In this document: one piece after another, positions 2,828 through 42,071 of the stretch
How the letters are laid out: each line of letters opens with the position of its first letter
How positions within the stretch are numbered: position 1 is the stretch's first letter
Assembly: GCA_964397845.1 (NCBI GenBank)
Contig: CAYNKW010000004.1
Span: forward strand, 1-44,088
Source of the DNA: an uncultured Anaerolineae bacterium
Lineage (GTDB): Bacteria > Chloroflexota > Anaerolineae > CAYNKW01
DNA: 44,088 bases
Direction: 5' to 3'
Notes under the pieces: generated by a model
What the model was told of the DNA's origin: nothing
What the model saw: the letters and a program-made list of their open reading frames with translations, nothing else
Databases searched by the model: none
Made by a program: the position numbers and the translations under genes

Positions 2828-4045
2828 ATGCAAATCTTGTTCCTCTCCACCTGGTTTCCCTATCCACCCGACAACGGTTCCAAGATCCGGGTATACCACC
2901 TGCTCCGCGCTCTTGGCGCCAGGCACAAGGTTACTCTTCTGTCCTTTGCCTTCGAGACGGCGAACCCAGAGGGTGCTAACGAGCTGCATCATTTCTGTGC
3001 AGACGTCCAAACGGTACAGTGTAACCCTTTTGATCGCAGCCGCGTCGCCAATACCTTGCGCTTTCTTTCGCCAGTCCCAATTGTGACGAACCCCCTGCCG
3101 GAAATGACCCAGGCTGTTCGCAGCGCTCTGGCGCAGACTAACTTTGATGTGGTCGTCGCTTCTACCGGGGTGATGGCGACCTACGGGTTGCTGGCCCCCC
3201 AGGCAACAGTCAAAGTTCTGGAAGAGCACAATTCCCTCACTCGCTGGATGTGGGAGCGCTATAGAGAGCAGAATTCAACCGTGCAACGCCTGCGCTGTTG
3301 GCTAAGCTGGCAAAAAACCCGCTACTACGAAGCCCGGCTGTTCCGCCGGTTTGGCCTGTGTATGATGGTTTCTGAGCAAGACCGTAAAACCAGCCGGTAC
3401 ACATTACCTGGTTATCACGGGCGGGTCAAAGTCGTGCCCAACGGCGTGGACTGCCAGCACAACCGCCCTGGCCTGGCCCGGCCCACGCCCAAAGCACTGG
3501 TCTTCAACGGCGCCCTTACCTACAGTGCCAATTACGACGCCATGCAGTACTTTCTGGCCGAAATCTACCCCCTCATCCAGCAACAAGAGCCTGATGTGTC
3601 GTTGACCATCACTGGCTCCACCTCCGGCGTGCGCCTCTCTGGTTTGCAGTTGGATGAAAGCGTCCGTCTCAGCGGCTACGTGGACGACGTCCGCCCCGTG
3701 GTGGCCGGCGCCTGGGCCTGCGTTGTGCCCATCTGTCAGGGCGGCGGCACCCGGCTCAAGATCCTGGAGGCCATGGCCCTGGGCACGCTGGTGGTGACCA
3801 CGTCCAAAGGAGCAGAAGGGCTGGATGTGACACCCAACTACAATATCCTGATTGCCGACGAACCGGCAGAATTCGCGGCCCAAGTGATCCACCTGCTGCG
3901 CGATCCAGTCCTGCGCCGGCGGCTAACAATCAATGCCCGTCGCCTCGTCGAGCAACGTTACGACTGGGCACCGATCGGCCAACGTTTTGTAGATCTGATC
4001 GAGGAGGTTGCCAGCAAGCATATGCGCGCGGGAGTTCCGTCATGA
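2828..4045 (+). CDS. Glycosyltransferase, GT4 family; N-terminus resembles the PEP-CTERM/EpsH1-system-associated sugar transferase subfamily
   Basis: The ATG directly abuts the upstream TAG. MQILFLSTWFPYPPDNGSKIRVYHLLRAL..; GGGTRLKILEAMALGTLVVTTSKGAEGL. Confidence 0.85.
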   Translation: MQILFLSTWFPYPPDNGSKIRVYHLLRALGARHKVTLLSFAFETANPEGANELHHFCADVQTVQCNPFDRSRVANTLRFLSPVPIVTNPLPEMTQAVRSALAQTNFDVVVASTGVMATYGLLAPQATVKVLEEHNSLTRWMWERYREQNSTVQRLRCWLSWQKTRYYEARLFRRFGLCMMVSEQDRKTSRYTLPGYHGRVKVVPNGVDCQHNRPGLARPTPKALVFNGALTYSANYDAMQYFLAEIYPLIQQQEPDVSLTITGSTSGVRLSGLQLDESVRLSGYVDDVRPVVAGAWACVVPICQGGGTRLKILEAMALGTLVVTTSKGAEGLDVTPNYNILIADEPAEFAAQVIHLLRDPVLRRRLTINARRLVEQRYDWAPIGQRFVDLIEEVASKHMRAGVPS

Positions 4046-5478
4046 TCGGCGACATCCGACGCAGGCTCCGTACTGGCCGATGGTGGACCTGGGCAGCGGC
4101 TGCGGTCGTGTTGCTTGGGGCGGCCTTCCTCGGCTCCCGCCCTTCTCCGCGCTGGTTGGTCTTGCTCGGAGCAGGCATGGGCGCCGTTGTTTTGTTGCAA
4201 TGGCCGATCCTGGGCCTCCTGGCCCTGGTGCCTGCTGCCCTGGTCGTCCCGTTGGAGTTCGGCACCGGCACGGCCGTCGCTGTGAACCCGGCCACGTTGC
4301 TAGTGCCGGCCTTGTTCGTCCTCTGGTTACTGGACATGGTGCGCCAGCGAGATCTGCGCCTGGTCCCATCGCGCACCACCAGACCTCTGTCGCTCTTTCT
4401 GCTCGCTGGCTTGGTCTCTCTCCTGGTAGGCAACGCCCTCTGGGACCCGGCCGTGCCCCGCTCCGGAAGCTTTACCCTGGTGCAACTGGCACAGTGGGCC
4501 ATCTTTGCCTTCTCCGCTGGCGCCTTTTGGCTGACGGGCAACCTGGTGCGCGATGAGGTTTGGTTGCGCCGTCTGACTTTCCTCTCCCTGGCTGTGGCCG
4601 GCAGCGTGGCTATCGTTTTCGTGCTAATCGGCGGCGTTAGTCTGGTGAGCCATCGTGTGGTTACAGTTGCCCTGATCCGGGCCCCCTTCTGGCTGTTGCT
4701 GGCCGCCCTGGCTGGTGGGCAATTGCTCTTCAATCGGGAGCTCTCCTCTGGCTGGCGTTCCTTCCTGGTGGCTACCCTGGGAGCGGTGCTGGTCTACGTC
4801 TTTCACTTGCAGCGAGAAGTGGCGTCCCACTGGGTTGGCGTGGCCGCCGTGGCGGGCGTGCTGGCCTGGCTGCGCTGGCCGCGCCTGCGCTGGCCGGTTG
4901 TGGTTCTGCTGTTGGTGCTGGCCAGCACTGGCGTGCTCTCTTCAACCATCTACGACTTTGCCGGTGGCGATGCCGAGTGGTCTGAGAGCGGCGGCTCGCG
5001 CCTGGCGCTCATTGGCCGCGTCGTCGAGGTGACCATGCGCAACCCCATTACTGGTCTGGGGCCGGCCGCCTATCGCTCTTATGCCCGAATGAGACCTTTG
5101 CCTTACGGGAGAGCGCTGTGGCTCGAACCCAATGTCTCATCCCACAACAACTACGTGGACCTGTTTTCACACATTGGCTTGCTGGGATTGGGGCTTTTCT
5201 TCTGGTTTGCAGCGGAGCTGACCAGGTTGGGTTTGCGATTGCGAACTCAATTTACCAAAGGCTTTGCTGCTGGTTACGTGAACGCTATGCTGGCCGCCTG
5301 GGCCGGAGCGCTGACACTGATGCTGATGGCCGACTGGATCCTGCCCTTTGTTTACAACATCGGCTTCTCCGGCTTTCAGGCCAGTGTGTTGGTGTGGTTG
5401 TTCCTGGGCGGGCTGGTGGCGCTGGAGCAAATGGCAAATGGCAAATGGCGAATGGGCGGAAAGCAAGAGATGAAGTGA
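4042..5478 (+). CDS. O-antigen ligase/polymerase (Wzy_C) family polytopic membrane protein
   Basis: ATGA start/stop overlap with the upstream GT. Many hydrophobic segments. The loop block SSHNNYVDLFSHIGLLGLGLFFWF is typical of the O-antigen ligase family. Confidence 0.8.
   Translation: MIGDIRRRLRTGRWWTWAAAAVVLLGAAFLGSRPSPRWLVLLGAGMGAVVLLQWPILGLLALVPAALVVPLEFGTGTAVAVNPATLLVPALFVLWLLDMVRQRDLRLVPSRTTRPLSLFLLAGLVSLLVGNALWDPAVPRSGSFTLVQLAQWAIFAFSAGAFWLTGNLVRDEVWLRRLTFLSLAVAGSVAIVFVLIGGVSLVSHRVVTVALIRAPFWLLLAALAGGQLLFNRELSSGWRSFLVATLGAVLVYVFHLQREVASHWVGVAAVAGVLAWLRWPRLRWPVVVLLLVLASTGVLSSTIYDFAGGDAEWSESGGSRLALIGRVVEVTMRNPITGLGPAAYRSYARMRPLPYGRALWLEPNVSSHNNYVDLFSHIGLLGLGLFFWFAAELTRLGLRLRTQFTKGFAAGYVNAMLAAWAGALTLMLMADWILPFVYNIGFSGFQASVLVWLFLGGLVALEQMANGKWRMGGKQEMK
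5428..5455 (+). repeat. Tandem heptanucleotide tract CAAATGG x3 + CGAATGG inside the 3' end of the Wzy-like gene
   Basis: Read directly: caaatgg caaatgg caaatgg cgaatgg. Confidence 0.95.
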
Positions 5479-5505: not shown

Positions 5506-5893
5506 CTAGGATTGCACCCAGCTCTCCAGGGGCAGGCGGGGGATGCGGCGGAAATGCTCTACGTTGTTGGTCACAAGGGTCAAACCATGGGTCAGCACCG
5601 TCGCGGCAATCACCAGATCAAAGTCTTCTATGAGCATTCCCTGCTTGCGTAGTAACGCTTTGAGGTCGCCAAAGATGCGGGCAATCTCCGAATCAACTCC
5701 CAATACAGTGATGCCACTGAAAGTCATCAATGGCCTGATGATTGGCCTCAGGTCGAGCCGAACAGGCTGCCCCGTAGCGTAGCTCCGCCAGCGTGATCAC
5801 CGAGACGCCTGTTGCCTCAGGGCCGATGGCGGACGGACTCATGTCCACACAGCCAGAAGACGCAGGTGTCGGTATCCAGCAGGAATTTCACAG
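5506..5893 (-). pseudogene. vapC: PIN-domain VapC toxin, disrupted by two frameshifts
   Basis: GTG 5891-5889 overlaps the antitoxin TGA (GTGA). Frame a reads VKFLLDTDTCVFWLCGHESVRHRP*. Frame b reads ..IGPEATGVSVITLAELRYGAACSARPEANHQAIDDF... Frame c (ORF 5506..5730) reads ..SGITVLGVDSEIARIFGDLKALLRKQGMLIEDFDLVIAATVLTHGLTLVTNNVEHFRRIPRLPLESW. Concatenated, these form a canonical VapC. Confidence 0.8.
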
Positions 5894-6139
5894 CGCAGGC
5901 GGCTCCATCCTTGACCGGCGGGCCTCGTGAATATCCTGCAGCGTTGACTCTACCGGCCGGTCATCCTGCCAGGCACCGAAAGAAGCCCAGAAGCGTGCCA
6001 CATCTCGTGGCAGCAATCCTTCCTCGCGAGCAGGCTCCACAAAGGTAACCAGAACACGGTAAGGCTCTTGTACAGGAGCCGTTTCCAGCAACTGAATTTG
6101 TTTACCGTCATATACGGCTGGCACAGATATCAGCGGCAT
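5888..6139 (-). CDS. vapB: Type II antitoxin (VapB-like), 83 aa
   Basis: ATG 6139 with GGAG about 9 nt upstream. MPLISVPAVYDGKQIQLLETAPVQEPYRVLVTF.. followed by a C-terminal tail. The stop overlaps the vapC start. The 143-aa ORF-track version is an upstream extension. Confidence 0.7.
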   Translation of the reverse strand: MPLISVPAVYDGKQIQLLETAPVQEPYRVLVTFVEPAREEGLLPRDVARFWASFGAWQDDRPVESTLQDIHEARRSRMEPPAL

Positions 6140-6289
6140 GGTTTGCTCCTTCTCACAATCGAGACTTGACTTTAAGGCTATTGTACCACGAGCCGATGAA
6201 CTCGACAAGTAAAGTAACCTGCTTTCAACGCCATTGTACCATAACCCGGCGGGCCTGGCAAACAGGTCCACGCCAGAGAGTGAGGACCC

Positions 6290-7315
6290 ATGGTTGAGCC
6301 GCAACTCCCAGCACGACACAAAGTGGATATCTCGATCATCATTGTCAACTGGAACACGCGAGAGTTGCTGGCGCGGTGCTTGCAGTCGGTGATTTCAAGT
6401 TTCGAGTCTCAGGTCTCGAGTCCGGCGAGCCAACCCGCAACCCGCAACCCGCAACCCGCAACCCGCAACCTGCAACCTGCAACCCGCAACCTGCAACCTG
6501 CAACTTGTGAGGTGTTTGTGGTGGACAACGCCTCGACCGACGGCAGCGCCCAGATGGTGCGAGAGTGCTTCCCCTGGGTGCGGCTCATCGAGAACGCGGA
6601 GAACGTTGGCTTTGCTCGGGCCAACAACCAGGCCATCAGCCAGAGTCAGGGGTGCTACGTCCTGCTGCTCAACAGCGACACCGAGGTGTACCCTGGGGCA
6701 CTGAAGACGACGGTTCAGTTCATGGAGGGGCGTCCTCAGGCTGGCGGATGTGGGCCGCGGCTGCTAAACGCCGGCGGCAGCCTGCAGGTCTCGTGCCACC
6801 CTATGCTGACGCCGGAGCGCGAGTTCTGGCGGCTGCTGTTCCTGGAACGGCTGTGGCGCCGGGCGACCTACGCTCAAGAACGCTGGGACCGGCAGGTGCC
6901 GCGCTCGGTAGAGGTGATCAAGGGGGCCTGCTTCCTGCTGCGGCGGACGGCGCTGGAGCAAGTGGGATCGCTGGATGAAGGGTATTTCATGTACACCGAG
7001 GAGATGGATCTGTGCTACCGTCTGCTGCGGGCCGGGTGGCAGCTTTGGTGGATGCCGCAGGCCGTGGTGAAGCATTATGGGGAGGCCAGTTCAAAACAGG
7101 TGGCCGAGGCGATGTACGTGCAACTCTATCGCAGCAAAGTCCAGTTCTACCGCAAGTTCGGCGGGCCGCGCCGGGCGACTCGCTTCAAGCGTCTGCTGCG
7201 CCTGGCCTACGGGCCTCGACTGATTGTTGCTGCCCTGGGCGCTCTCTTTTCACCATCTCTGGCCACCCGGGCGCGTACCTATCGCCGCCTGCTGGCCGAA
7301 CTGCCAGCGATGTAA
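6290..7315 (+). CDS. Glycosyltransferase, GT2 family (GT-A fold), carrying an internal heptamer-repeat insert
   Basis: [21 protein letters not shown] .. [16 protein letters not shown] .. LLLNSDTEV .. [10 protein letters not shown] are typical Glycos_transf_2 blocks. Confidence 0.9.
6431..6507 (+). repeat. Eleven tandem heptamers CAACC(C/T)G (last unit CAACTTG), in-frame inside the GT2 gene
   Basis: Read directly: 5x caacccg, caacctg, caacctg, caacccg, caacctg, caacctg, caacttg. Translated as [14 protein letters not shown] repeats. Confidence 0.97.
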
Positions 7316-7322
7316 AGGGAGA

Positions 7323-8243
7323 TTAATCATCTTTCAGAATCAGCGGCAGATAAGTTAGGTAGGGGTTGGCAATGACGATGACCATGGCGGTACTGGACTC
7401 GGCGCCCGCTTCGCTCAGTTCGGCGGTGTTGGTGAGAGCCCGGTGGTCACTGGTGGTGATGGTAATGATGTAACTGATGGTCACCTCCTGGCCTGCTGGC
7501 GGGGTATCGCTCCACGTCAGGCGGTGTTGATCGCTGTCATAATCAGGCATAACACTGGTGCCTTCCAACCCAAAGTTGCCTGGCGCGCTTACACCTGTAG
7601 ACAGCGTATCAGTGAGGGTGAGAGTGCTATGATTACCTAAAAAACTCAGGGTATAGGTGATGGCGTTGCCCTGGTAGCCGAAGGATGGAGTAGCGACCTT
7701 TTTGAAATAACGTACGGCCTGTATGGTGACGATAAGGTTTTGGATGTAGAAGAGGTCGCCTCTGACAAAGGCAGGGACGTCCAAGTATTTCAACAGTTCC
7801 TCTCGGTCTTCTTGGAGAATTAGGGCTTTGGCCTGAAATAAAGAGTTAGAGTCATATAGAGGCTGTATAACCCCTTCACAAAATGTCTGTTCTGTCTTTG
7901 TTTGAAACCAATAAGGAGCCACATAGTTATATTCATCAATGGCTTCCTGTATTTTTGCCAAAGCATTATCGTGCAGATATTGTCCCAGTTCGGGCACAAG
8001 GTATATAAAATTTCTGGCCACGTTTAGTGTTCGTCTGTAATCATAGTAGTCCGGCCAGGGCGCATCTTTGTCAAATTCTGTTACTCTCAGGGCAAGCAGC
8101 CTATCGAGCTCAGTCCTAATTTCAGTGGACTCGGGATATCCGGCTAGTTTTTCTAATTCGAGGTACCCCCAGTAGCCGGCGATATATGCATTATGCACAT
8201 GGACATTTTCTAACAAATAGGCATCAGAAGGCGGCGATTGCAA
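7323..8243 (-). CDS. C-terminal portion of the upstream beta-propeller protein (helical region + DUF11-like domain + YLPLILK tail); separated from it only by one in-frame TAG
   Basis: No signal peptide of its own. The frame is open from 8303 down to 7323. Ends ..TITTSDHRALTNTAELSEAGAESSTAMVIVIANPYLTYLPLILKDD*. Confidence 0.7.
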   Translation of the reverse strand: MQSPPSDAYLLENVHVHNAYIAGYWGYLELEKLAGYPESTEIRTELDRLLALRVTEFDKDAPWPDYYDYRRTLNVARNFIYLVPELGQYLHDNALAKIQEAIDEYNYVAPYWFQTKTEQTFCEGVIQPLYDSNSLFQAKALILQEDREELLKYLDVPAFVRGDLFYIQNLIVTIQAVRYFKKVATPSFGYQGNAITYTLSFLGNHSTLTLTDTLSTGVSAPGNFGLEGTSVMPDYDSDQHRLTWSDTPPAGQEVTISYIITITTSDHRALTNTAELSEAGAESSTAMVIVIANPYLTYLPLILKDD

Positions 8244-8303
8244 TCTCTCTTCACTGTTATCAAATATCTCTTTAGCTATGCCTGGTGATTCCCCTTCAAA
8301 AAC

Positions 8304-10517
8304 CTAGGCATACTTCCATAAGCCATAGAACATGTGCGGAGGATAGTGCCAGCCTTTATAAAAGCCACTCCATTCAGCTTTAGCAGGAAAATTAACTCGG
8401 TCTTCTTCTACTTCAGGAGGGAGATCAAAGATTTGACGAGAGGCACCGTCTTTCCAACCAATATGGGTATATGTGTAAGGAGGATAAGCCGCATATTCAT
8501 TCTGGAGATAAGTTTTTACAGTTTCTTGTTGGTTTTTAGGCAAATGGGGCAAGGCAAGAGATAGAATGTAAAGCGTATCTGAAGGATGATGCCAATAATC
8601 TATTAGATATTCGCCGGCACCACTTTTGGTTCTTTGGTCAAACAACCCAGAGCCCAGGTAACCTGGTCTTAAGTGACCAGCATCCAAGATCTTTTGTATC
8701 TCTTGGGACAATTGCTGTCTCAATTGTTCAGTGCTGATTGGGGTGATATTGGCATTCTGAACATTGACTGTTGGTGCCATTGGCAAACCCGTATAAGAAC
8801 CAGCATAATCCCCAAAGGCAATAATAGAGTTGCTTTTGTGCATATAGACTTTTCCCTTATATGGGACAGGAGGGTTCTGCTCACCGTGTAGGCCATAAAC
8901 TCCATTGACGCTTTCTTTGGCTCCCTTATACATGAGGTAGTCATTCGTGTCGTCTAAATCAAAGTACAATTCGTTATATCCAGGTATCTTGTCTTCTAAA
9001 TCATAACAGAAATAAGTCCATATTCTGTCTGGTTCTGAGAGTGGTTTGGTAATGTCGAAAGCTCCAGCCACGCGATCAGCGCAATGGAGCCAGTAGATGA
9101 GGTCACCACCGGCGGAATAGGCTATTGGCTCGTCCATAACGTTTCCCCATGAAGTAGGTATATCAAAAGATGAAGCGCCAAGTTCCCAACCAACGATGCA
9201 TCCAGAGGCAATATGAGGGTTAGATGTATAGTGAACTGGTTGGTGAAGCTTATTATCAGACCCTACTACCGGTGGATAACGATTGCCTGGCCCATGAGTA
9301 TGAAGCCAGGTGATAGGAGCATAGCTGATACCGGTAGTGCCATTTTCCCTTTGATACTCGAAAGTAAATTCCTCTCCTGTGTTTGCGCTCAGAACAAAAT
9401 AGGTTCTTCTCCAAGGTTTCTGCTCGTAATACTCAAGGATTTTGGTAACATCCATTGAACCATCAATTATTGGAGCAATAGTTTCCCCGGCAGGGATGCC
9501 ATTGGCAGTATACAGATCAGCTATTTCCAATCCTTGAATATCGGAGCTAGGACCTGGTTCGAGGGCTATACGGTAGTTATTGCTGCCGGCAAATATAACA
9601 TAATCTTCCTGCGTCTGAGGATCGGTGTAGACCACCGGCCACCAGGAGTGAAAACCGGCCCCAGGAAGCTTGGCCGATTTCCACACCAGTTCTCCTGTGT
9701 CGGCTGTCAGAGCATAGGCATGAGAGTCGTTAGAGGCAAAATAGATGGTGTTGCCCTTGTAGGCAGCCGAGAAAAGAACAGGGCCACCCGTTTTGAATTT
9801 CCAGAACAATGTAGCTGTGGTTCCGTTGTCCTCTATGGCATACATATAACCATCTCTGTTGCCGGCATAGACATAGGTATTACCCCCCAGATCAATAACA
9901 AGAGGGTTGGTTTGGAAGCCTTTTTCGGCTTCGAACGTCCAAATGGGTTGCCCAGTAAAGGCATCTATTGCGTGAATCTTGTGGTCGAATCCCCCTACAT
10001 ATGCCCTGCCATTGTGCACTGTTGGTGAATGGCCCAAGGGTAGTTCGGTTGGGTACACCCATCTCTCACTGCCTGTTTCGGCATCTATGGCATAAAGGCC
10101 TCTTGCTGTGGAGATATACAGGGTATCATGAGCAGCAATAATCTGCACCTTTTGAGAGATGTATGGCTCAATGGGTTTGTACCATATGGGGCTCAGTTTA
10201 CCTCTCACCTCTTCTGGTGTCCAAGAGGTTCTCTGGAGATTGGCGGCAACCATGGGCCAGTCACCTTCATCTACGATATCTGTGACTGTAGAAACAGTAT
10301 TGGCTGCCGCGTTGGTCTGGTAGTCCTTCCAGAAAGCCTTGGCTCCACTCGTGCCTTTACAGGCGAAACTCAAGTCCCCACGACACAATGTCGAGGCCGA
10401 TGCCGGTCTATGCGCAGCCATGCCCCACACCGCCAACAAGATAGCAGCGATGCTGACGATTGTGACGAACGCAATTCGTTTGCACCTCATTCTCTTCCTC
10501 CCTCGACTATCTCTCAA
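8304..10517 (-). CDS. Secreted/anchored PQQ-like (BamB-like) beta-propeller repeat protein; ends at an in-frame TAG
   Basis: N-terminal basic + hydrophobic signal MRCKRIAFVTIVSIAAILLAVWG. Repeated blocks of the type LYAIDAETGSERWVY, HAIDAFTGQPIWTF and YALTADTGELVWKS are typical of PQQ-like propellers. Confidence 0.8.
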   Translation of the reverse strand: MRDSRGRKRMRCKRIAFVTIVSIAAILLAVWGMAAHRPASASTLCRGDLSFACKGTSGAKAFWKDYQTNAAANTVSTVTDIVDEGDWPMVAANLQRTSWTPEEVRGKLSPIWYKPIEPYISQKVQIIAAHDTLYISTARGLYAIDAETGSERWVYPTELPLGHSPTVHNGRAYVGGFDHKIHAIDAFTGQPIWTFEAEKGFQTNPLVIDLGGNTYVYAGNRDGYMYAIEDNGTTATLFWKFKTGGPVLFSAAYKGNTIYFASNDSHAYALTADTGELVWKSAKLPGAGFHSWWPVVYTDPQTQEDYVIFAGSNNYRIALEPGPSSDIQGLEIADLYTANGIPAGETIAPIIDGSMDVTKILEYYEQKPWRRTYFVLSANTGEEFTFEYQRENGTTGISYAPITWLHTHGPGNRYPPVVGSDNKLHQPVHYTSNPHIASGCIVGWELGASSFDIPTSWGNVMDEPIAYSAGGDLIYWLHCADRVAGAFDITKPLSEPDRIWTYFCYDLEDKIPGYNELYFDLDDTNDYLMYKGAKESVNGVYGLHGEQNPPVPYKGKVYMHKSNSIIAFGDYAGSYTGLPMAPTVNVQNANITPISTEQLRQQLSQEIQKILDAGHLRPGYLGSGLFDQRTKSGAGEYLIDYWHHPSDTLYILSLALPHLPKNQQETVKTYLQNEYAAYPPYTYTHIGWKDGASRQIFDLPPEVEEDRVNFPAKAEWSGFYKGWHYPPHMFYGLWKYA

Positions 10518-10826
10518 GATCAGCGATGGGTAAGGTCAGAAAAGTATTCGTCCCGCGTTCGGGTCTCGAACTCTGCTTTTCTGGGTTATTACACCACGCG
10601 TCTTTTCGGTCATTGTGATACCTATCATTTGCCATTTATCATTGGTCATTCCTCCCTATAGTCATATTCTAGCACGTCACGTCGAATCTGGCAAGCAATG
10701 TGGCGGGAACAAGGAGACGTGGAGACCGGGAGATAGGGGGGCCAAGGAGCGGACTCTTTGATCACCTTGTCTCCCCCTCTCCCCATCCCCCCTCACTTCT
10801 TCACAGCTTCACTGGAGGCCAAACCC

Positions 10827-11990
10827 ATGCGTCTTTGCTACGTCCTGCTCTCTCCCACTTTCGGCATGCACCAGTATACCGCCGACCTGGCCAACCGCAT
10901 GGCCCACACTTTGACGGGCTCAGTGAGCCACGACGTGTGCCTGGTGACGACGACGCACGTCCCGCGCTGCCGCTACGCGCCGGCCGTGGTGGTCCACACG
11001 CCCATGGAGACGACCAACACCGGTCTCTCGCGCCAGGTATTCCGGCTCTCCGCCCTTCGCAATCTGCAATCTGCAATCTGCAATCTGCACCCCGACGTCG
11101 TTCACTTTACCGGGCCACACCTGTGGAACGCCCCCTTGATATGGGCGCTCGTCGCGCGAGGCGTTCCTGTGATCCACACCCTGCATGACCTGGACCCCCA
11201 TCGCGGCGTCCGTTACAGCTTGCTGATCCGGCTCTGGAACCGGGTGGTCATGCACTCGGCGGATCACATCCTGGTCCACGGCCAGACCTACCGGCAGCGA
11301 CTGCTGGCCCAAGGGATGCCCCCCCACCGGGTGACCTGGACACCGCTGCTCCATCTCTTCCTGGGCAGCACCATGCTGGCCGCGTCCCCCGACTTGACTG
11401 TCTCTGTTGAATACCAGCCCTGGGCTCTCTTTTTTGGGCGTCTGGAACGTTACAAAGGCCTGGATCACCTGATCACCGCCTGCGCCATGATGGACGGAAC
11501 TGACGCGCCCTCGCCTCGCGTCGTGGTCGCCGGGCCCGGAGACCTGACGGCCTTGTGGGCCGGGCCGCTGCCCCAACGATTGGCCTTGCGTAGTCGCCTG
11601 ATAGCCGACGTGGAGGCCATAGATCTATTTCGCCGTTGTGGGCTGCTGGTGTTGCCCTACGTGGACGCCACCCAGTCGGCTTTAATTGCCGCGGCCTACT
11701 ATTTCCGCAAACCGGTCGTCGTCACCCGCACCGGCGCGCTGCCCGAGTACGTGGAAGACGGCCTCACCGGCCGTGTGATAGAGCCGGGCCACCCTGCTAC
11801 GTTGGCGCGCTGTCTCGACGAAATGTTGAGCGATCCGGCCCGGCTGGCCCGGATGGGCGCGGCCGGTCGCGCCTGGTACGACGCTCGCCGTGCTACCGAA
11901 GAGCGCACTTTGATTGAAATGTACCTCCGTCTCGCGAACAAGAGACCCTTGGACGACCCGATCACCCAATTGTCCAGCCACCCAGTCTGA
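10827..11990 (+). CDS. Glycosyltransferase, GT4 family, carrying an internal heptamer tract
   Basis: ATG 10827 with GGAGG (10813-10817). MRLCYVLLSPTFGMHQY..; LLVLPYVDATQSALIAAAYYFRKPVVVTRTGALPEYV. Confidence 0.85.
   Translation: MRLCYVLLSPTFGMHQYTADLANRMAHTLTGSVSHDVCLVTTTHVPRCRYAPAVVVHTPMETTNTGLSRQVFRLSALRNLQSAICNLHPDVVHFTGPHLWNAPLIWALVARGVPVIHTLHDLDPHRGVRYSLLIRLWNRVVMHSADHILVHGQTYRQRLLAQGMPPHRVTWTPLLHLFLGSTMLAASPDLTVSVEYQPWALFFGRLERYKGLDHLITACAMMDGTDAPSPRVVVAGPGDLTALWAGPLPQRLALRSRLIADVEAIDLFRRCGLLVLPYVDATQSALIAAAYYFRKPVVVTRTGALPEYVEDGLTGRVIEPGHPATLARCLDEMLSDPARLARMGAAGRAWYDARRATEERTLIEMYLRLANKRPLDDPITQLSSHPV
11059..11089 (+). repeat. Tandem heptamers GCAATCT x4 (+GCA) inside the GT4 gene
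   Basis: Read directly: gcaatct gcaatct gcaatct gcaatct gca. Translated as ..LRNLQSAICNLH... Confidence 0.95.
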
Positions 11991-14720: not shown

Positions 14721-15854
14721 ATGTCAAACGAGCGACCCCTTCTGCGCATCCTGGTGATCTTTGGCACCCGTCCCGAGGCGATCAAGATGGCGCCTGTGGT
14801 GCGAGCGTTGCAAGCGCGGCCGGAGGCGTTCGCCGTGCGAACCTGTGCCACGGCCCAACACCGCGAGATGTTGGACCAGGTGCTCGACCTGTTCGGTATC
14901 GTGCCCGACGTTGACCTGGACCTGATGCAACGCGGGCAAAGCCTGTCTGACCTGGGGGCGCGGGTGCTGGCCGGGCTGGACCCGGTGTTTGTCGCCGAGC
15001 GCCCGGACTGGGTGCTGGTGCAGGGGGATACGACGACGGTGGCGATGGCCGCCCTGGCGGCCCAGCACCGGCAGGTGCGCGTGGGACACGTGGAGGCTGG
15101 CCTGCGCACCGGCGACCGGCGCAACCCTTTCCCGGAGGAGATGAACCGGGTGGTGGCCGACCACGTCAGCGACCTCTGCTTTGCGCCGACAGAGACGGCC
15201 CGCCGCAACTTGCTGCGCGAGGGCATCCCCGATGCTCTGATTCGGGTCACCGGCAACACCGTGATTGACGCCCTGCTGACGGTGGTCGGAGGAGCCTGGC
15301 CCCGTGAGCCCAACAGCCCGCTGGCTGATCTGCCCGCTGACCGGCAATGGCTGCTGGTGACAGCCCACCGGCGAGAGAACTTTGGACGGCCACTGAAGAA
15401 TATCTGCCAGGCGTTAAAGCGCATCTCTGAGGAGCGCGGCGATCAGGTACATATCGTTTACCCGGTCCATCGCAATCCGCAGGTGTGGCAGCCGGTCCAC
15501 GAAACATTAGCCGGCTTGTCCGGGGTCACCCTGCTGCCACCGGTGGACTATGGCACTTTGATCTGTTTGATGAGACGATGCTGGTTAGTGTTGACCGACT
15601 CGGGTGGGCTGCAAGAAGAAGCGCCAAGTTTAGACAAGCCGGTGTTGGTGCTGCGGGAGACCACAGAGCGGCCCGAGGCCGAGGCCGTGGGCGCCGCGCG
15701 CGTCGTAGGCACCGACCCGCAGCGAATCGTGGCCGAGACGTACCGATTGTTGGACGATTCCGCCGCCTACACCCGGATGGCCAGCGCTCCCAATCCCTAT
15801 GGCGATGGTCATGCTGCGGAGTGCATTGCAGACGCGCTCCTCGAGTTTGCGTGA
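14721..15854 (+). CDS. wecB: UDP-N-acetylglucosamine 2-epimerase (non-hydrolysing)
   Basis: ATG 14721. MSNERPLLRILVIFGTRPEAIKMAPV .. VQGDTTT .. HVEAGLRT .. PFPEE .. DSGGLQEEAPSLDKPVLVLRETTERPE. The ORF-track start at 14367 overlaps the upstream GT2 and is rejected. Confidence 0.92.
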   Translation: MSNERPLLRILVIFGTRPEAIKMAPVVRALQARPEAFAVRTCATAQHREMLDQVLDLFGIVPDVDLDLMQRGQSLSDLGARVLAGLDPVFVAERPDWVLVQGDTTTVAMAALAAQHRQVRVGHVEAGLRTGDRRNPFPEEMNRVVADHVSDLCFAPTETARRNLLREGIPDALIRVTGNTVIDALLTVVGGAWPREPNSPLADLPADRQWLLVTAHRRENFGRPLKNICQALKRISEERGDQVHIVYPVHRNPQVWQPVHETLAGLSGVTLLPPVDYGTLICLMRRCWLVLTDSGGLQEEAPSLDKPVLVLRETTERPEAEAVGAARVVGTDPQRIVAETYRLLDDSAAYTRMASAPNPYGDGHAAECIADALLEFA

Positions 15855-15864
15855 AAGGGTTCAC

Positions 15865-17163
15865 ATGAAACAGCGCCCCAATCACTATCTGGCTGCAATC
15901 TTGATCCTGTCCGTCCTGTTGCGCGTCGCCGTAGCCGCATACCTGGGCGATGAGGTGGACGCGCCGTCGCTGCTGACCGACCAGCGATCCTACGACGCAC
16001 TGGGCGCCCGGTTGATCGCTGGCCACGGCTTCAGCTTTGACCGGGCGTGGTACCCTTTTACGCCCGCCGAGGCACCCACGGCCCACTGGTCGTTCCTCTA
16101 CTCGCTCTTTGTGGCCGGCGTCTATGCTCTTTTCGGTGTGCATCCCCTGGCAGTGCGACTGATACAGGCCATCCTCGGCGGCCTCCTGCTGCCCTGGATG
16201 ATCTATCGCCTGGCGCGGCACCTTTTCTCTCCCCCTCTCCCTCTCTCCCTCCTCCTGCTGGCGGCGCTCATGGCTTCCCTATACGGCTATTTTATCCTCT
16301 ACGCTGCCACACTGATGACGGAGACGTTCTACATCACCGCCGTGTTGTGGTCCCTGGAACGAGGCCTGAAGCTGGCCGACCGGCTGCGCGTCAAAGCGGC
16401 CATGCGAGCGCTATGGCCGCTTGTGTCCTCGTTGGGCCTGAGCCTGGGGGTTGCGACGTTGCTGCGACAGTCAATCTTGCCCTGGGTGCCGGTCCTGTTC
16501 ATTTACTTGTTCTGGACCGGGTGGCGCGTACGATGGTTGCGCTCCACTGTGGCAGCGGTGGGAATCGTTGTGCTGATTCTGACTGTCTTTATCCTGCCCT
16601 GGACGGTTCGCAACTACCTCGTCTACGACGATTTTTTACTACTCAACTCCAACGCCGGATACGCCATGTACTCGGCTCAACATCCCATGCACGGCACGGA
16701 CTTTCGCGAGTTCGATCCTGCCCCGCTGCCGGAAGGGTTACGGGGACAGCCAGAGCCAGAACTGGATCGGGCTCTGATGCGGCAGGGCATTCAGTTCATC
16801 CTGGACGACCCCGGCCGCTACCTGCTGCTCTCGTTGAGCCGGGCCCGCGCCTTCTTTGAGTTCTGGCCCACGCCGGATACCACCCTGCTGCACAACATCG
16901 GACGCACCGGCTCCTTTGGCTTGTTTCTACCCTTCATGCTCTATGGCCTGATCCTGGCGGTTCGCCGCCGGCAATTTGTGGCGCACAACGCGCTGCTGTT
17001 CCTGTTCGCCGCTTTTTACACCCTGCTACATATGCTAACCTGGGCCATGGTACGTTACCGGCTGCCAGTAGACGCGATTGTGATTCCGCTGACCGCACTG
17101 GCGGTGGCGGACCTTGTTCAGCGTGTGCGGGAAGCAACCCGCCATCTGGCTACTGGCTACTGA
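15865..17163 (+). CDS. GT-C fold membrane glycosyltransferase (GT39/ArnT/PMT_2-like)
   Basis: ATG 15865. About 10 or more TM segments. The first extracytoplasmic loop has the acidic motif LGDEVDAPSLLTDQRSYDALG. Confidence 0.65.
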   Translation: MKQRPNHYLAAILILSVLLRVAVAAYLGDEVDAPSLLTDQRSYDALGARLIAGHGFSFDRAWYPFTPAEAPTAHWSFLYSLFVAGVYALFGVHPLAVRLIQAILGGLLLPWMIYRLARHLFSPPLPLSLLLLAALMASLYGYFILYAATLMTETFYITAVLWSLERGLKLADRLRVKAAMRALWPLVSSLGLSLGVATLLRQSILPWVPVLFIYLFWTGWRVRWLRSTVAAVGIVVLILTVFILPWTVRNYLVYDDFLLLNSNAGYAMYSAQHPMHGTDFREFDPAPLPEGLRGQPEPELDRALMRQGIQFILDDPGRYLLLSLSRARAFFEFWPTPDTTLLHNIGRTGSFGLFLPFMLYGLILAVRRRQFVAHNALLFLFAAFYTLLHMLTWAMVRYRLPVDAIVIPLTALAVADLVQRVREATRHLATGY

Positions 17164-39740: not shown

Positions 39741-42071
39741 ATGAAAAAAAGGATTATAATGTCACTATTGGTAGTATTGATATTAATAGCCTTTTACTGC
39801 AATTTAGCGTATGCTGATAAAAGGGATGATTTTCTCGATCGAAAAGATTTATGGTTTTTCCATTCCGCAGGAGTGGCGGATGAAGCTGAGATAATGAACG
39901 GATATGCGAAAATATTGTTATCTAATCCAAGCTCTAGTGAAGGAAGCAATTGCGGGATTGGTGAGAATCCAGGTCATTATCTAAACTTCACCTTTAGAGC
40001 AAGGATTAAAGCCCTCACCCCACTGATGCCCGGTACACACGGATGGGGATTATGGTTACAGCGTGATTGGACTGATGGGATAAACTGGGCTGCGTGGTTC
40101 ATGGAACAAAACGATCCTACAGGAGAACCAATTAACAATTTTTGGGCAGCAGCTACTATCAATGGTCCAGTAAGTACAATGCAAATGTTTAATTTGGAAG
40201 GTATCGTTAATAACCAGGAATGGCATACATACGAAATTAAAAAGACCGAAGACAGAGTTGAATTTTTCGTTGGCGGAAATCTCGTATTCCAGACAACCTC
40301 AGAAATACCAAACCGAATTATGGGAGCACGAACATGGAATGATAACTTGAATTATGAGGTGGCGGATCCTTCCAATTACTATTTTCGAGGATGGTCGGGA
40401 ACAAGTTCTCATGTTGTAGATTTTATGGAAATTTATGATGTTGAGCCCGGAATAAGCATTCCCCCTGAAGGAACGATTCTGCTAAGGGAACTACCTAATG
40501 AAATTGGTTCTGGCCAGCCACAGTATCTCTGGAAAAGTTATGAATATACTTCCCCAGGTGGAAAGACAGTAGTAATGGTAACAGCCAGAGCCGAGCAATA
40601 CATCGATGATATGAGCGATGACGATGATATTAAAATAGTCATAGATGGTATTGATTATGGATGGGATACAGACAATTCTTTTGATGGTAATACTTTAATA
40701 GGGAATAATGGAACACTTGTTTTTGTAAAAGATGAGAATCCCGGGCAGCATACGGTTCAGATTTATGGTGACATCACTCCCCTTCTCTATGATGTTACTG
40801 TTCTCGGAGTTGAAAATGGAGATATTATCTTGGAGGATATGCTCAATGAGCAAGCTCCTGGCGGTAATAATTATCTTTGGAAGGAGTACGAATTTACCAC
40901 TTCTGGGGAGGAAGAGGTAGCTATTGCAGTTTCTGCTACTGCCAACGATAATTATCGTTCTGACGACGATGATGTTCGAATAGTTGTAGATGGAGAGGAT
41001 TTTGGATGGGATACTCATGGATCTTTCGATGGTGATGAGCTCTACGGAGAAGCACGACTTCTTGTAATAAGGCGGAATTTATCACAAGGTAGCCATCTAT
41101 TACAAATATATGCCGATGAAACCCCAACTCTCCATGGTGTTGTCATATATGGGGCTACGCCAACGGCGACTTTGACTCCTACACCAACGGCCACGTCTAC
41201 CAACACCCCGACGCCGACGGCGACCCCGACAGACATACCGACGGCGACGCTCACGCCGACTGACACGCCAACGCCAATGGCGACGGCAACCGAGACACCG
41301 ACGGCGACGCCCACCAATACACCGACACCTACGGCGACCGCAACCGACACGCCAACAGCGATTGCAACCGAGACACTGACGCCGACAGCAACCCCGATCG
41401 ACACACTGACGCCGACGGCCACGCCCCCCGACACGCTGACACCGACGAGCACGCCGACAGACACACCGATGGCGACGCCCACACCGACTGACACACCAAC
41501 CGCCACGGCCACGCCGACCGACACACCGACGCCGACGGCGAGTGCGACGCCGACCCCGACCCCCACGCCGACCCCGGCCGACGTGATCGTGGACAACACA
41601 GATCCTGGGTTTTCGGTGATTGGTTCCTGGCTCACCTACTCCGGCTCCATCCATCCCCACTATGGAGCTGACTTTCGCTACGACGAGGCCGGGACGGGTG
41701 GCGAGTGGGCCACATTTGTCCCGGACCTTCCCAAGGCGGCCCGCTACGAGGTCTTCATCTGGTGGGGCACCGCTCCCACCGGTGCGACCAACGCTCCCTA
41801 CACGGTTCATCACCTGGGCGGGGAGACGACCGTGCGGGTCAATGTACGCGGGCCTATCGGAGGGGGAGGGGTCTGGTACAGCCTGGGAACCTATGACTTT
41901 GCTGCCGGGACGGCGGGCAGCGTCGTGATCAGCGACGACGCCGACGGCTACGTCGTCGCCGACGCCGTGCGCTTCCTGGAGGCCAGCTCCACGTCGCCCC
42001 AAACTGGCTTCACGGCTCCTCTCTGGTCATTCCTACGCTGGAGTCTCCTGCCCCCGGGGCATTTGAGGTAG
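39741..42071 (+). CDS. Secreted multidomain protein: ConA/LamG-like domain, two tandem ~116-aa domains, ~140-aa Thr/Pro linker, golvesin-C-terminal-like carbohydrate-binding domain
   Basis: AGGAGG before the ATG. Signal peptide [49 protein letters not shown] (ConA-like). C-terminal [55 protein letters not shown]. Confidence 0.8.
41157..41576 (+). repeat. Low-complexity coding repeat (Thr-Pro-Thr-Ala/Asp linker; ACN CCN ACN GCN periodicity)
   Basis: Translated [40 protein letters not shown]...[13 protein letters not shown]. Long antisense ORFs here are artefacts. Confidence 0.9.

Follow-up and report, generated by a model that had tools for sequence, protein, structure and literature searches.

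An intragenic heptanucleotide repeat in a GT2 glycosyltransferase gene of an Anaerolineae bacterium

Heptamers are the most abundant class of LSSR, head-to-tail arrays of 5–11-nt units (LSSR5-11) that exceed the length expected by chance, in most bacterial genomes, according to the passages of PMC4692102 and PMC4679880 that cite Mrazek 2007. The same passages assign them mainly to non-pathogens with large genomes and mostly to intergenic positions, and parts of both papers describe heptamer tracts whose length varies between close relatives at conserved positions, with polymerase slippage suggested as the cause. Repeats of this general kind are also known as switches: phase-variable SSR tracts in glycosyltransferase, LOS and LPS genes comprise tetranucleotides in Haemophilus and homopolymers in Neisseria and Campylobacter, and 7-bp repeats lie in the hmw promoters of H. 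influenzae (PMC2651432, PMC12721329). GGGNATC-type heptamers of Xanthomonas and Nostoc have been reported to fold into G-quadruplexes (G4; Rehm et al. 2015, PMC4692102), and TAACTGA repeats have been described from marine Beggiatoaceae, Cyanobacteria and Bacteroidetes (MacGregor 2015, PMC4679880). No examples emerged when the literature was searched for Chloroflexi with heptanucleotide repeats or for phase variation by 7-bp repeats in glycosyltransferases.

The locus described here is an array of eleven 7-nt units inside a GT2 glycosyltransferase gene, located in a 44,088-nt stretch of DNA that was analysed as a whole and is referred to below as the window. The architecture of the locus is that of a translational contingency locus; its behaviour is that of a heptanucleotide LSSR. 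That heptamers are the dominant bacterial LSSR was already known; what is new is an intragenic example in Anaerolineae, which will not surprise a specialist.

The array and the enzyme loop that it encodes

The array starts exactly at codon 48 of the ORF, in its 5′ sixth (Table 1). Listed unit by unit, it consists of five CAACCCG units, two CAACCTG, one CAACCCG, two CAACCTG and a final CAACTTG, with 5 of the 11 units differing from CAACCCG. A preliminary description of the locus had given it as eleven CAACC[C/T]G heptamers; the 11 units of exactly 7 nt stand, whereas the formula is matched by ten of them and not by the last (6501–6507), the degenerate CAACTTG. TRF delimits the repeat at 6431–6504 (period 7, 10.6 copies, 95% matches, score 120), and a search for a 21-nt motif of the array, allowing up to 3 mismatches, yielded eight matches, all within the array itself (0.00 expected from 100 dinucleotide shuffles). 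With 7-nt units placed head to tail beyond chance length, the array belongs to the LSSR5-11 class. Its longest perfect run is the part most prone to slippage. This run extends to 5.7 units at most, the tract carries interruptions and it has decayed in one lineage, so that it lacks the long pure tract that characterizes contingency loci.

The minus strand of positions 6431–6465, the template strand of the gene, reads (CGGGTTG)5 and contains five G3 tracts separated by 4-nt loops. The 11-unit allele thus contains a formal G-quadruplex motif (at least four consecutive G3 tracts on one strand, with loops of no more than 7 nt), which was read straight from the sequence and is a prediction only. All six frames of the CAACCCG unit are free of stop codons. 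A minus-strand ORF (6409..6636, 75 aa, containing RVAGCRL) overlaps the array and is explained by this stop-free unit.

The 341-aa product of the gene matches PF00535 (Glycos_transf_2) at 77 bits, against a cut-off of 23.3. With the N-terminal b1-a1-b2 unit interrupted by the array, the Pfam alignment does not begin until residue 70. In the GT2 family alignment D79, D84 and D130 (the last in LLNSD) are invariant, as are W21, N22 and T23, and the AlphaFold2 (AF2) model, with a pTM of 0.80, shows alternating strands and helices; Pfam score, conserved acidic residues and a Rossmann-like b-a-b core together identify the product as a GT2 enzyme of GT-A fold. It is rhamnosyltransferase-like and scores far below the cut-offs of all NCBIfam equivalogs. 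Among named homologues, GT2 proteins from Anaerolineae MAGs come closest (64–74% identity), and a PDB sequence search with the protein found no solved relative at E ≤ 1e-3.

In Rossmann-like GT-A folds, a1 and b2 are joined at the sheet's edge, on the side away from the nucleotide-binding site and the active site; by this standard geometry, the a1-b2 loop of the present enzyme should face away from the active site. The AF2 fold is confident outside residues 41–69, and in this model the array encodes the a1-b2 connection, which is predicted to be disordered. The family alignment shows the same division: between the conserved b1/a1 segment and the conserved VVDN block, length is hypervariable. 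From NWN to VVDN the window protein has a spacing of 52 aa; of the 95 close homologues that allowed the measurement, 38 have 22 aa. This spacing ranges from 19 to 61 aa in the clade, with a mode of 22, and is also 22 aa in most of 80 metagenome relatives among the matches listed (identity ≤71%). About half of the close homologues have loops of 30–61 aa, an expansion that spans a whole subclade. The preliminary description had placed the array in frame between b1/a1 and the VVDNAS strand, which is borne out by the ORF translation, the PF00535 match and the AF2 model, and had held that GT-A enzymes normally keep this loop short, with which the measured spacings agree. It had further proposed that a gain or loss of one or two units would disrupt the enzyme while three would keep the frame. 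Computed unit changes give precisely this outcome, with truncated products of 68–142 aa for ±1 or 2 units and proteins of 334 or 348 aa for ±3 units.

Table 1. Coordinates of the repeat arrays and of the gene and protein features associated with them, in window numbering.
Feature	Coordinates	Strand	Location or basis
GT2 (GT-A fold) glycosyltransferase gene, 341 aa	6290..7315	+	PF00535, family alignment, AF2 model
Strand b1 (residues 14–20, ISIIIVN) and helix a1 (residues 24–39)	6329..6406	+	Upstream of array; family alignment, AF2
Predicted disordered loop (residues 41–69, pLDDT below 50)	6410..6496	+	Holds most of the array-encoded peptide; AF2
Heptanucleotide tandem array, 11 units	6431..6507	+	Codons 48–73 of GT2 gene; unit-by-unit listing, TRF
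Longest perfect period-7 run, 5.7 units, 40 nt	6431..6470	+	Unit listing
Strand b2 (EVFVVDN, residues 73–79)	6506–6526	+	AF2
(GCAAATG)x4.1 array	5427..5455	+	C-terminal tail of Wzy_C-like gene 4042..5478
(GCAATCT)x4.4 array	11059..11089	+	Inside GT4 gene 10758..11990, about residues 100–110
(CTGGCTA)x2.4 short array	17146..17162	+	3′ end of PMT_2-like ORF 15799..17163

Alleles across strains and orthologues

The 11-unit array is identical in the window and in seven other contigs (L001 and L230–L235) from seven different ENA/JGI assembly or sample records, and is therefore no assembly artefact. Over the 1026-nt gene, six of these contigs have no SNPs relative to the window and one has four; the array is unaltered in a variant with 4 SNPs elsewhere in the gene. 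Runs bearing the locus are marine-sediment and subsurface metagenomes, and the 11-unit allele, together with its C/T interruptions, is modal in the samples of three studies, dated 2016, 2017 and 2024. In the 90%-identity protein cluster to which the window protein belongs there are five sequences, with lengths of 341, 341, 327, 327 and 316 aa.

A comparison of strains had been proposed in the preliminary description, and it reveals length polymorphism among close relatives. Three contigs from other sediments or mangroves carry a 5-unit allele, at 97.5%, 96.8% and 92.4% nucleotide identity to the window outside the array. In two of them the array reads CAACCCG-CAACCTGx3-CAACTTG and in the third CAACCCA-CAACCCG-CAACCTG-CAACTTGx2, with 3.7 perfect copies at most. 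The difference from the 11-unit allele is 42 nt, or 6 units. The same 42-nt skip is seen in Logan contigs of three further metagenomes, and in the alignment of these contigs to the window no other length variant was found.

More distant orthologues have arrays at the same site, with a common 3′ junction (...CAACCTG-[CT]AACT..-GAGGT.TTTGTGGTGGA). Four CAACCTG units followed by TAACTTA are present in L122–L124 (~85% nucleotide identity over the gene), seven units, mostly CAACCCA, in L125 (70% amino acid identity), and two units in L128 and L129 (72% amino acid identity); in L126 there are five decayed units and the reading frame is intact. The dominant unit is specific to the lineage, being CAACCCG, CAACCTG or CAACCCA. 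Copy number thus varies at one locus among related genomes in the manner of LSSRs (11 versus 5; 2, 5 and 7 in orthologues), and the tract is, from these sequences, old and orthologous, with changes in copy number and lineage-specific homogenization, which are the signature of continuing slippage. The history of unit turnover that the preliminary description had read from the C/T variants is in this way confirmed between alleles, both at 92–97.5% nucleotide identity and among the orthologues.

Every allele recovered is in frame, about 17 contigs having been retrieved through protein sequence, a route that favours intact ORFs; the independent alleles are few, and any single pair has a 1/3 chance of differing by a multiple of three. 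Logan DNA contigs carry no bias toward intact proteins, and in those of 12 metagenomes, a small, consensus-level sample, no allele differing by ±1 or ±2 units (±7 or ±14 nt) was seen. These k=31 contigs split within the 40-nt perfect run (left contigs end at 6460 and right ones start at 6441), so they reveal neither the unit count of the perfect part nor rare variants.

Candidate OFF alleles were considered and rejected. The truncated homologue P0020 owes its length to a short gene call, and its gene is intact and in frame. At the P0059 locus (L127), the whole loop and b2 are deleted together with a frameshift, which is not repeat slippage.

Heptamers of other sequence occur in more remote relatives. 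In L136 (61% identity), a GAAGGAA-type heptamer stretch of 27 nt occurs twice, 110 nt apart, with one copy in the Wzy C-terminal tail and the other in the GT2 a1-b2 loop, which are the sites of two of the window's own arrays. A (TTCTGGA)4.6 array is present in L203 (40% identity), where it precedes the GT2 start codon by 28 nt.

Heptamer arrays in the window and in other genomes

Among periods 4–12, perfect arrays of at least 3 copies in the 44-kb window are of period 7 only, and there are three of them (starting at 5427, 6431 and 11059); within the window, 7-nt arrays are therefore in excess over other unit lengths, as is characteristic of LSSRs. The three units, GCAAATG, GCAATCT and, in the corresponding register, GCAACCC, have GCAA in common, an observation on three arrays only. 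The GT2 gene sits in a glycan-synthesis cluster of Wzy, Bac_transf, GT4 and GT2 genes, and glycan genes occupy most of the first ~27 kb of the window.

The array in the Wzy tail differs by 2 and 3 units among the same close relatives, and the frame of the last residues is altered. It shows that slippage by other than multiples of three does occur and becomes fixed in this lineage where it is harmless. Such a change is present in the Wzy tail and absent from the GT2 tract, a contrast that suggests that purifying selection keeps the enzyme intact. The GT4 array is of equal length in L210 and in L126, and is decayed in L126.

Outside this locus the repeat is generic. The preliminary description had named occurrence as a dispersed element, regardless of gene class, as the observation that would speak against a switch, and this is what a search of GTDB species representatives returned: (CAACCCG)4 is present at at least 120 unrelated loci in many phyla, with 4–33 copies. 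Among the matches listed, the hosts are Bacteroidota, Streptomyces, Desulfobacterota, Planctomycetota, Acidobacteriota, Vibrio, Delftia, Paenibacillus and one Anaerolineales MAG; some genomes carry many such loci, and no flanks are common to them. In 868 kb of sequence around (CAACCCG)n arrays perfect arrays of period 7 number 208, of which 68 have other units, and each other period accounts for 0–20. Of the 87 (CAACCCG)n arrays with enough flanking sequence, long ORFs enclose 22% (versus 65% of random positions), 39% fall in no long ORF (versus 9.5%) and 34.5% are within 60 codons of an ORF 5′ end (versus 14%).

The metagenomes tell the same story. In all eight, the depth over the CAACCCG part is roughly 5–40 times that of the flanks, and many short contigs join it to unrelated flanks; CAACCCG occurs at many other loci in the same samples. 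The idea of CAACCCG as a special, horizontally spread heptamer was rejected: flanks are unshared, in viral contigs a scrambled heptamer of matched composition occurs no less often than CAACCCG (13 versus 4), and neither comparison gives evidence of horizontal spread.

Readings of the locus and comparison with known systems

The locus is probably (at a probability of about 0.7) an ordinary heptanucleotide LSSR, prone to slippage and kept in a permissive loop of the GT2 enzyme, with its frame held by purifying selection. The permissive character of the site is suggested by the small proportion of arrays found inside long ORFs, the placement of the window's other arrays in a C-terminal tail and at ORF ends, the hypervariable a1-b2 spacing and the low pLDDT of residues 41–69. 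On this account, a heptamer SSR would have arisen in the a1-b2 connection, or expanded there from a two-unit seed such as that of L128, this connection being presumably the only insertion-tolerant part of the enzyme's N-terminal half. Replication slippage would then add and remove 7-nt units and homogenize unit variants, and could have given each lineage its own copy number (2, 5, 7 or 11) and its own dominant unit. Changes that break the frame would produce a truncated, inactive enzyme and be removed by purifying selection, leaving only in-frame states, and the QPATRN(P/L) peptide would be a passive disordered spacer of no conserved sequence. We infer slippage as the mechanism, selection for the frame and neutrality of the peptide.

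Several observations sit less comfortably with so ordinary an origin. The array persists at one site in orthologues down to ~70% amino acid identity; in several lineages the tract stays homogenized instead of decaying, and it has lasted longer than a purely neutral microsatellite would be expected to. A surface-glycan glycosyltransferase with a repeat in its 5′ portion is, moreover, typical of contingency loci. The recurrence of heptamers in L136 and L203 could mean that a repeat at the gene's 5′ end is selected for, beyond being tolerated; recurrent birth at permissive sites can also account for it.

The preliminary description had proposed a candidate contingency locus. On such a reading, slippage of the heptamer would reversibly switch the enzyme between ON (in frame) and OFF (truncated) and subpopulations would differ in surface or exopolysaccharide structure, for example to escape phage or grazers. 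We consider this unlikely. The construction is that of such a switch, with a unit length that is not a multiple of three, a tract inside the ORF and in its 5′ sixth, and truncation upon a change of one or two units; however, nature has so far yielded in-frame alleles only, in a small consensus-level sample, with no OFF allele either in the contigs retrieved through protein sequence or in the Logan DNA contigs. Copy number does differ between close relatives, but the sole DNA-level length variant is −42 nt, and the same modal allele recurs in samples of 2016, 2017 and 2024. Likewise, although arrays recur at the 5′ end of orthologues and (CAACCCG)n is enriched near ORF 5′ ends across genomes, the repeat is generic and elsewhere mostly intergenic. 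The setting in a glycan-synthesis cluster fits a contingency locus well; the impurity of the tract (at most 5.7 perfect units, and 3.7 in the 5-unit alleles) does not, nor does the L126 lineage, which keeps the ORF while the tract decays. The ON/OFF switch thus finds no support in the alleles recovered.

That the array nevertheless serves as a working switch for a surface-glycan glycosyltransferase in sediment Anaerolineae, whether by phase variation or by tuning of expression, must be rated as decidedly improbable. Were it so, the arrays in the Wzy tail, the GT4 gene and the GT2 gene would form a small ‘phasome’ within the glycan cluster, and the recurrence in L136 and L203 would represent selection for mutability.

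A modulator acting at the level of DNA or RNA appears very unlikely. Here, a G-quadruplex formed by (CGGGTTG)5, or an i-motif of the C-strand, would slow transcription or replication in a copy-number-dependent manner, and the number of repeats would tune expression of the glycosyltransferase without switching it fully on or off. On the template strand, the run of five G3 tracts with loops of 4 nt conforms to the G3N1-7 motif, and the reported folding of GGGNATC-type heptamers lends this some plausibility, but the 5-unit alleles of close relatives have one G3 tract only, and orthologues use CAACCTG or CAACCCA. Coverage is similarly divided: three of four metatranscriptome-labelled runs are deeper 5′ than 3′ of the array (23.8 versus 8.2, 10.4 versus 5.7 and 29.1 versus 6.5), with DNA runs of the same samples even on both sides, yet the fourth RNA run is reversed (0 versus 4.8), and contig depth is a poor, unstranded measure of expression.

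Finally, that QPATRN(P/L) is itself a selected Pro/Thr/Gln-rich linker whose length matters, for instance in contact with a membrane or a partner, is hardly credible: the loop is enlarged across the subclade and the array is always translated in frame, but the lineages have unrelated loop sequences, the minimal spacing of 22 aa is found in many close homologues, the loop is disordered by prediction, and the repeat cycles through three frames, so that the peptide follows from the DNA unit and selection is not needed to explain it.

If the reading as an ordinary LSSR in a permissive loop is right, the locus is a natural example of how intragenic heptamer microsatellites survive only where the protein tolerates insertions, and of prolonged concerted evolution at an orthologous site, with selection admitting only in-frame copy numbers. 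Genome annotation stands to benefit, since tracts of this kind give rise to frameshift-like gene calls and interrupt k-mer assemblies, and the locus is a caution against calling contingency loci from sequence alone. If the array were instead a true switch, SSR-based phase variation of surface glycans would extend from host-adapted pathogens to slow-growing environmental Chloroflexota, and the locus, directly testable in public sediment metagenomes, would be the first contingency locus on record for Chloroflexota and for a free-living sediment bacterium.

With the phase-variable SSR glycan genes of pathogens, the locus shares a repeat in the 5′ part of the gene whose unit is not a multiple of three and in which a change of one unit would abolish the protein. 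It differs in that neither OFF alleles nor population-level heterogeneity were seen in the consensus contigs, in that the tract is short and interrupted, and in that the host is a free-living sediment bacterium. The heptamers of H. influenzae hmw act in the promoter or 5′-UTR, whereas the present array lies inside an ORF.

The G4-forming heptamers GGGNATC (Xanthomonas) and GGGGA(T/C)T (Nostoc) likewise have one G3 tract per 7-nt unit and keep their position between relatives while varying in length and sequence (PMC4692102). By contrast, the unit here, in the same register, is GGGTTGC, the array is intragenic where those are intergenic, and G4 potential is predicted for the 11-unit allele only and is absent from the alleles of close relatives. 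TAACTGA repeats (PMC4679880) and cyanobacterial STRR heptamers resemble CAACCCG in that one heptamer occurs in tandem in distant bacteria, mostly close to the 5′ ends of genes; TAACTGA, however, contains stop codons in its forward orientation and lies upstream of start codons, whereas CAACCCG, open in every one of its six frames, is translatable. The array is distinct from GGGNATC-type, STRR and TAACTGA repeats in its unit sequence, position or host.

The closest match is with LSSR5-11 (Mrazek, Guo and Shah 2007, as presented in parts of PMC4692102 and PMC4679880). Common to both are 7-nt units beyond chance length, the dominance of heptamers over other periods, variation in copy number and unit sequence among close relatives at a conserved position, and an environmental, non-pathogenic host. 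Anaerolineae (Chloroflexota) are absent from the hosts named in those parts, and most LSSR7 described there are intergenic, whereas the array reported here is translated within an enzyme domain.

Heptamer arrays of the Wzy-GT2 gene pair and the GT4 gene

Besides the CAACC[C/T]G array in the GT2 gene, the window carries several other repeat tracts (see table). The heptamer array at the end of the Wzy_C-like ORF, which has 4.1 units in the window, counts approximately six units in the close relative L210 and approximately seven in a second one, L212, and the C-terminal residues are read in differing frames (EQMANGKWRMGGKQEMK* versus EQMANDKWQMANGEWAESKR* versus EQMINDKWQMANGEW* in the comparison of the window, L210 and L212). 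Non-3n slippage has thus been fixed in this array, in a part of the protein where it does no harm.

At more distant orthologous loci, the same gene pair carries other heptamers. In L136 (61% identical), one 27-nt GAAGGAA-type stretch is present twice, once in the Wzy C-terminal tail and once in the GT2 a1-b2 loop, the predicted disordered connection that in the window takes in most of the peptide encoded by the main array (L136 positions 1463-1489 and 1573-1599). In L203 (40% identical), the GT2 ATG is preceded, at a distance of 28 nt, by a (TTCTGGA)x4.6 array (1437-1468). Heptamers of unrelated sequence thus turn up repeatedly at the same sites of the Wzy-GT2 gene pair. In the orthologous locus L122 (3085-3123), a CAACCTG array has two units in reverse-complement orientation (GCAGGTTGCAGGTT) 8 nt upstream of it, an arrangement that could form a 14-nt hairpin; the counterpart of these two units in the window is present only in decayed form (TCAGGTCTCGAGTCC).

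The GT4 array is unchanged in length in L210, where two units are mutated. In the orthologue L126 (75% nucleotide identity), the segment is also equal in length, and a period-7 'GC' is all that remains of the repeat. The tract has the look of an ancient coding heptamer repeat, homogenized in one lineage while in another it has decayed. ACC, CCG and ACG codons abound in the long imperfect repeat region, which probably encodes a Pro/Thr-rich low-complexity linker.

Repeat tracts and neighboring features in the window
Feature	Window position	Gene context	Details
(GCAAATG)x4.1 array	5427-5455	C-terminal tail of Wzy_C-like ORF 4042..5478	
Sigma-70-like promoter matches (n = 2)	6180-6261, minus strand		TTGCCA-17-TACAAT and TTGTCG-17-TACAAT
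Two minus-strand genes adjoining the GT2 gene	7368-10785		306-aa protein; 737-aa PQQ-like beta-propeller
(GCAATCT)x4.4 array	11059-11089	GT4 ORF 10758..11990	~residues 100-110, Pfam-covered part
Long imperfect repeat region	41181-41582	ORF 39741..42071	Periods 6, 30, 54 and 60 nt

Loop deletion, gene content and metatranscriptome coverage

The GT2 orthologue in L127 (82% amino acid identity) has lost the entire a1-b2 loop together with strand b2 (420-540), leaving ...CLRSV-stop and a frameshift; this gene has probably become a pseudogene. In the public sequencing run X7, a contig of low depth joins window positions 6360 and 6518 and so skips 157 nt; it may represent a variant of this kind.

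The 306-aa protein has no Pfam match. Both its gene and the beta-propeller gene are missing from L210 (97% identical), where the GT2 gene directly abuts window position 10786; their presence or absence is an indel polymorphism within the glycan cluster. The small genes 5' of the GT2 gene also vary, being PIN-type in L210 and DUF433/DUF5615 in L211, another close relative. Both promoter matches are oriented away from the GT2 gene, for which no promoter-like site of its own was found, and face small minus-strand ORFs (5506-6139); the matching position in L210 holds a PIN-domain toxin gene with a small partner gene upstream.

Within window positions 6181-7500, metatranscriptome-labelled contigs from four runs (X24-X27) cover the GT2 gene, so that its expression in situ is probable. 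Contig depth 5' of the main array was 2-4.5 times that on the 3' side in three metatranscriptome-labelled runs and the reverse in one; in DNA runs from the same samples, depth was even across the two sides.

(CAACCCG)n arrays in other genomes

Across GTDB genomes, (CAACCCG)n arrays of 4-33 copies are present at no fewer than 120 loci in many phyla. Among the matches listed, the Bacteroidetes MAG JADKIH01 has at least eight such loci and a Syntrophobacteraceae MAG at least four. At these listed loci, the arrays frequently adjoin arrays of other heptamers, and among perfect arrays in the surrounding 868 kb, period 7 exceeds the runner-up, period 4, by about 10:1.
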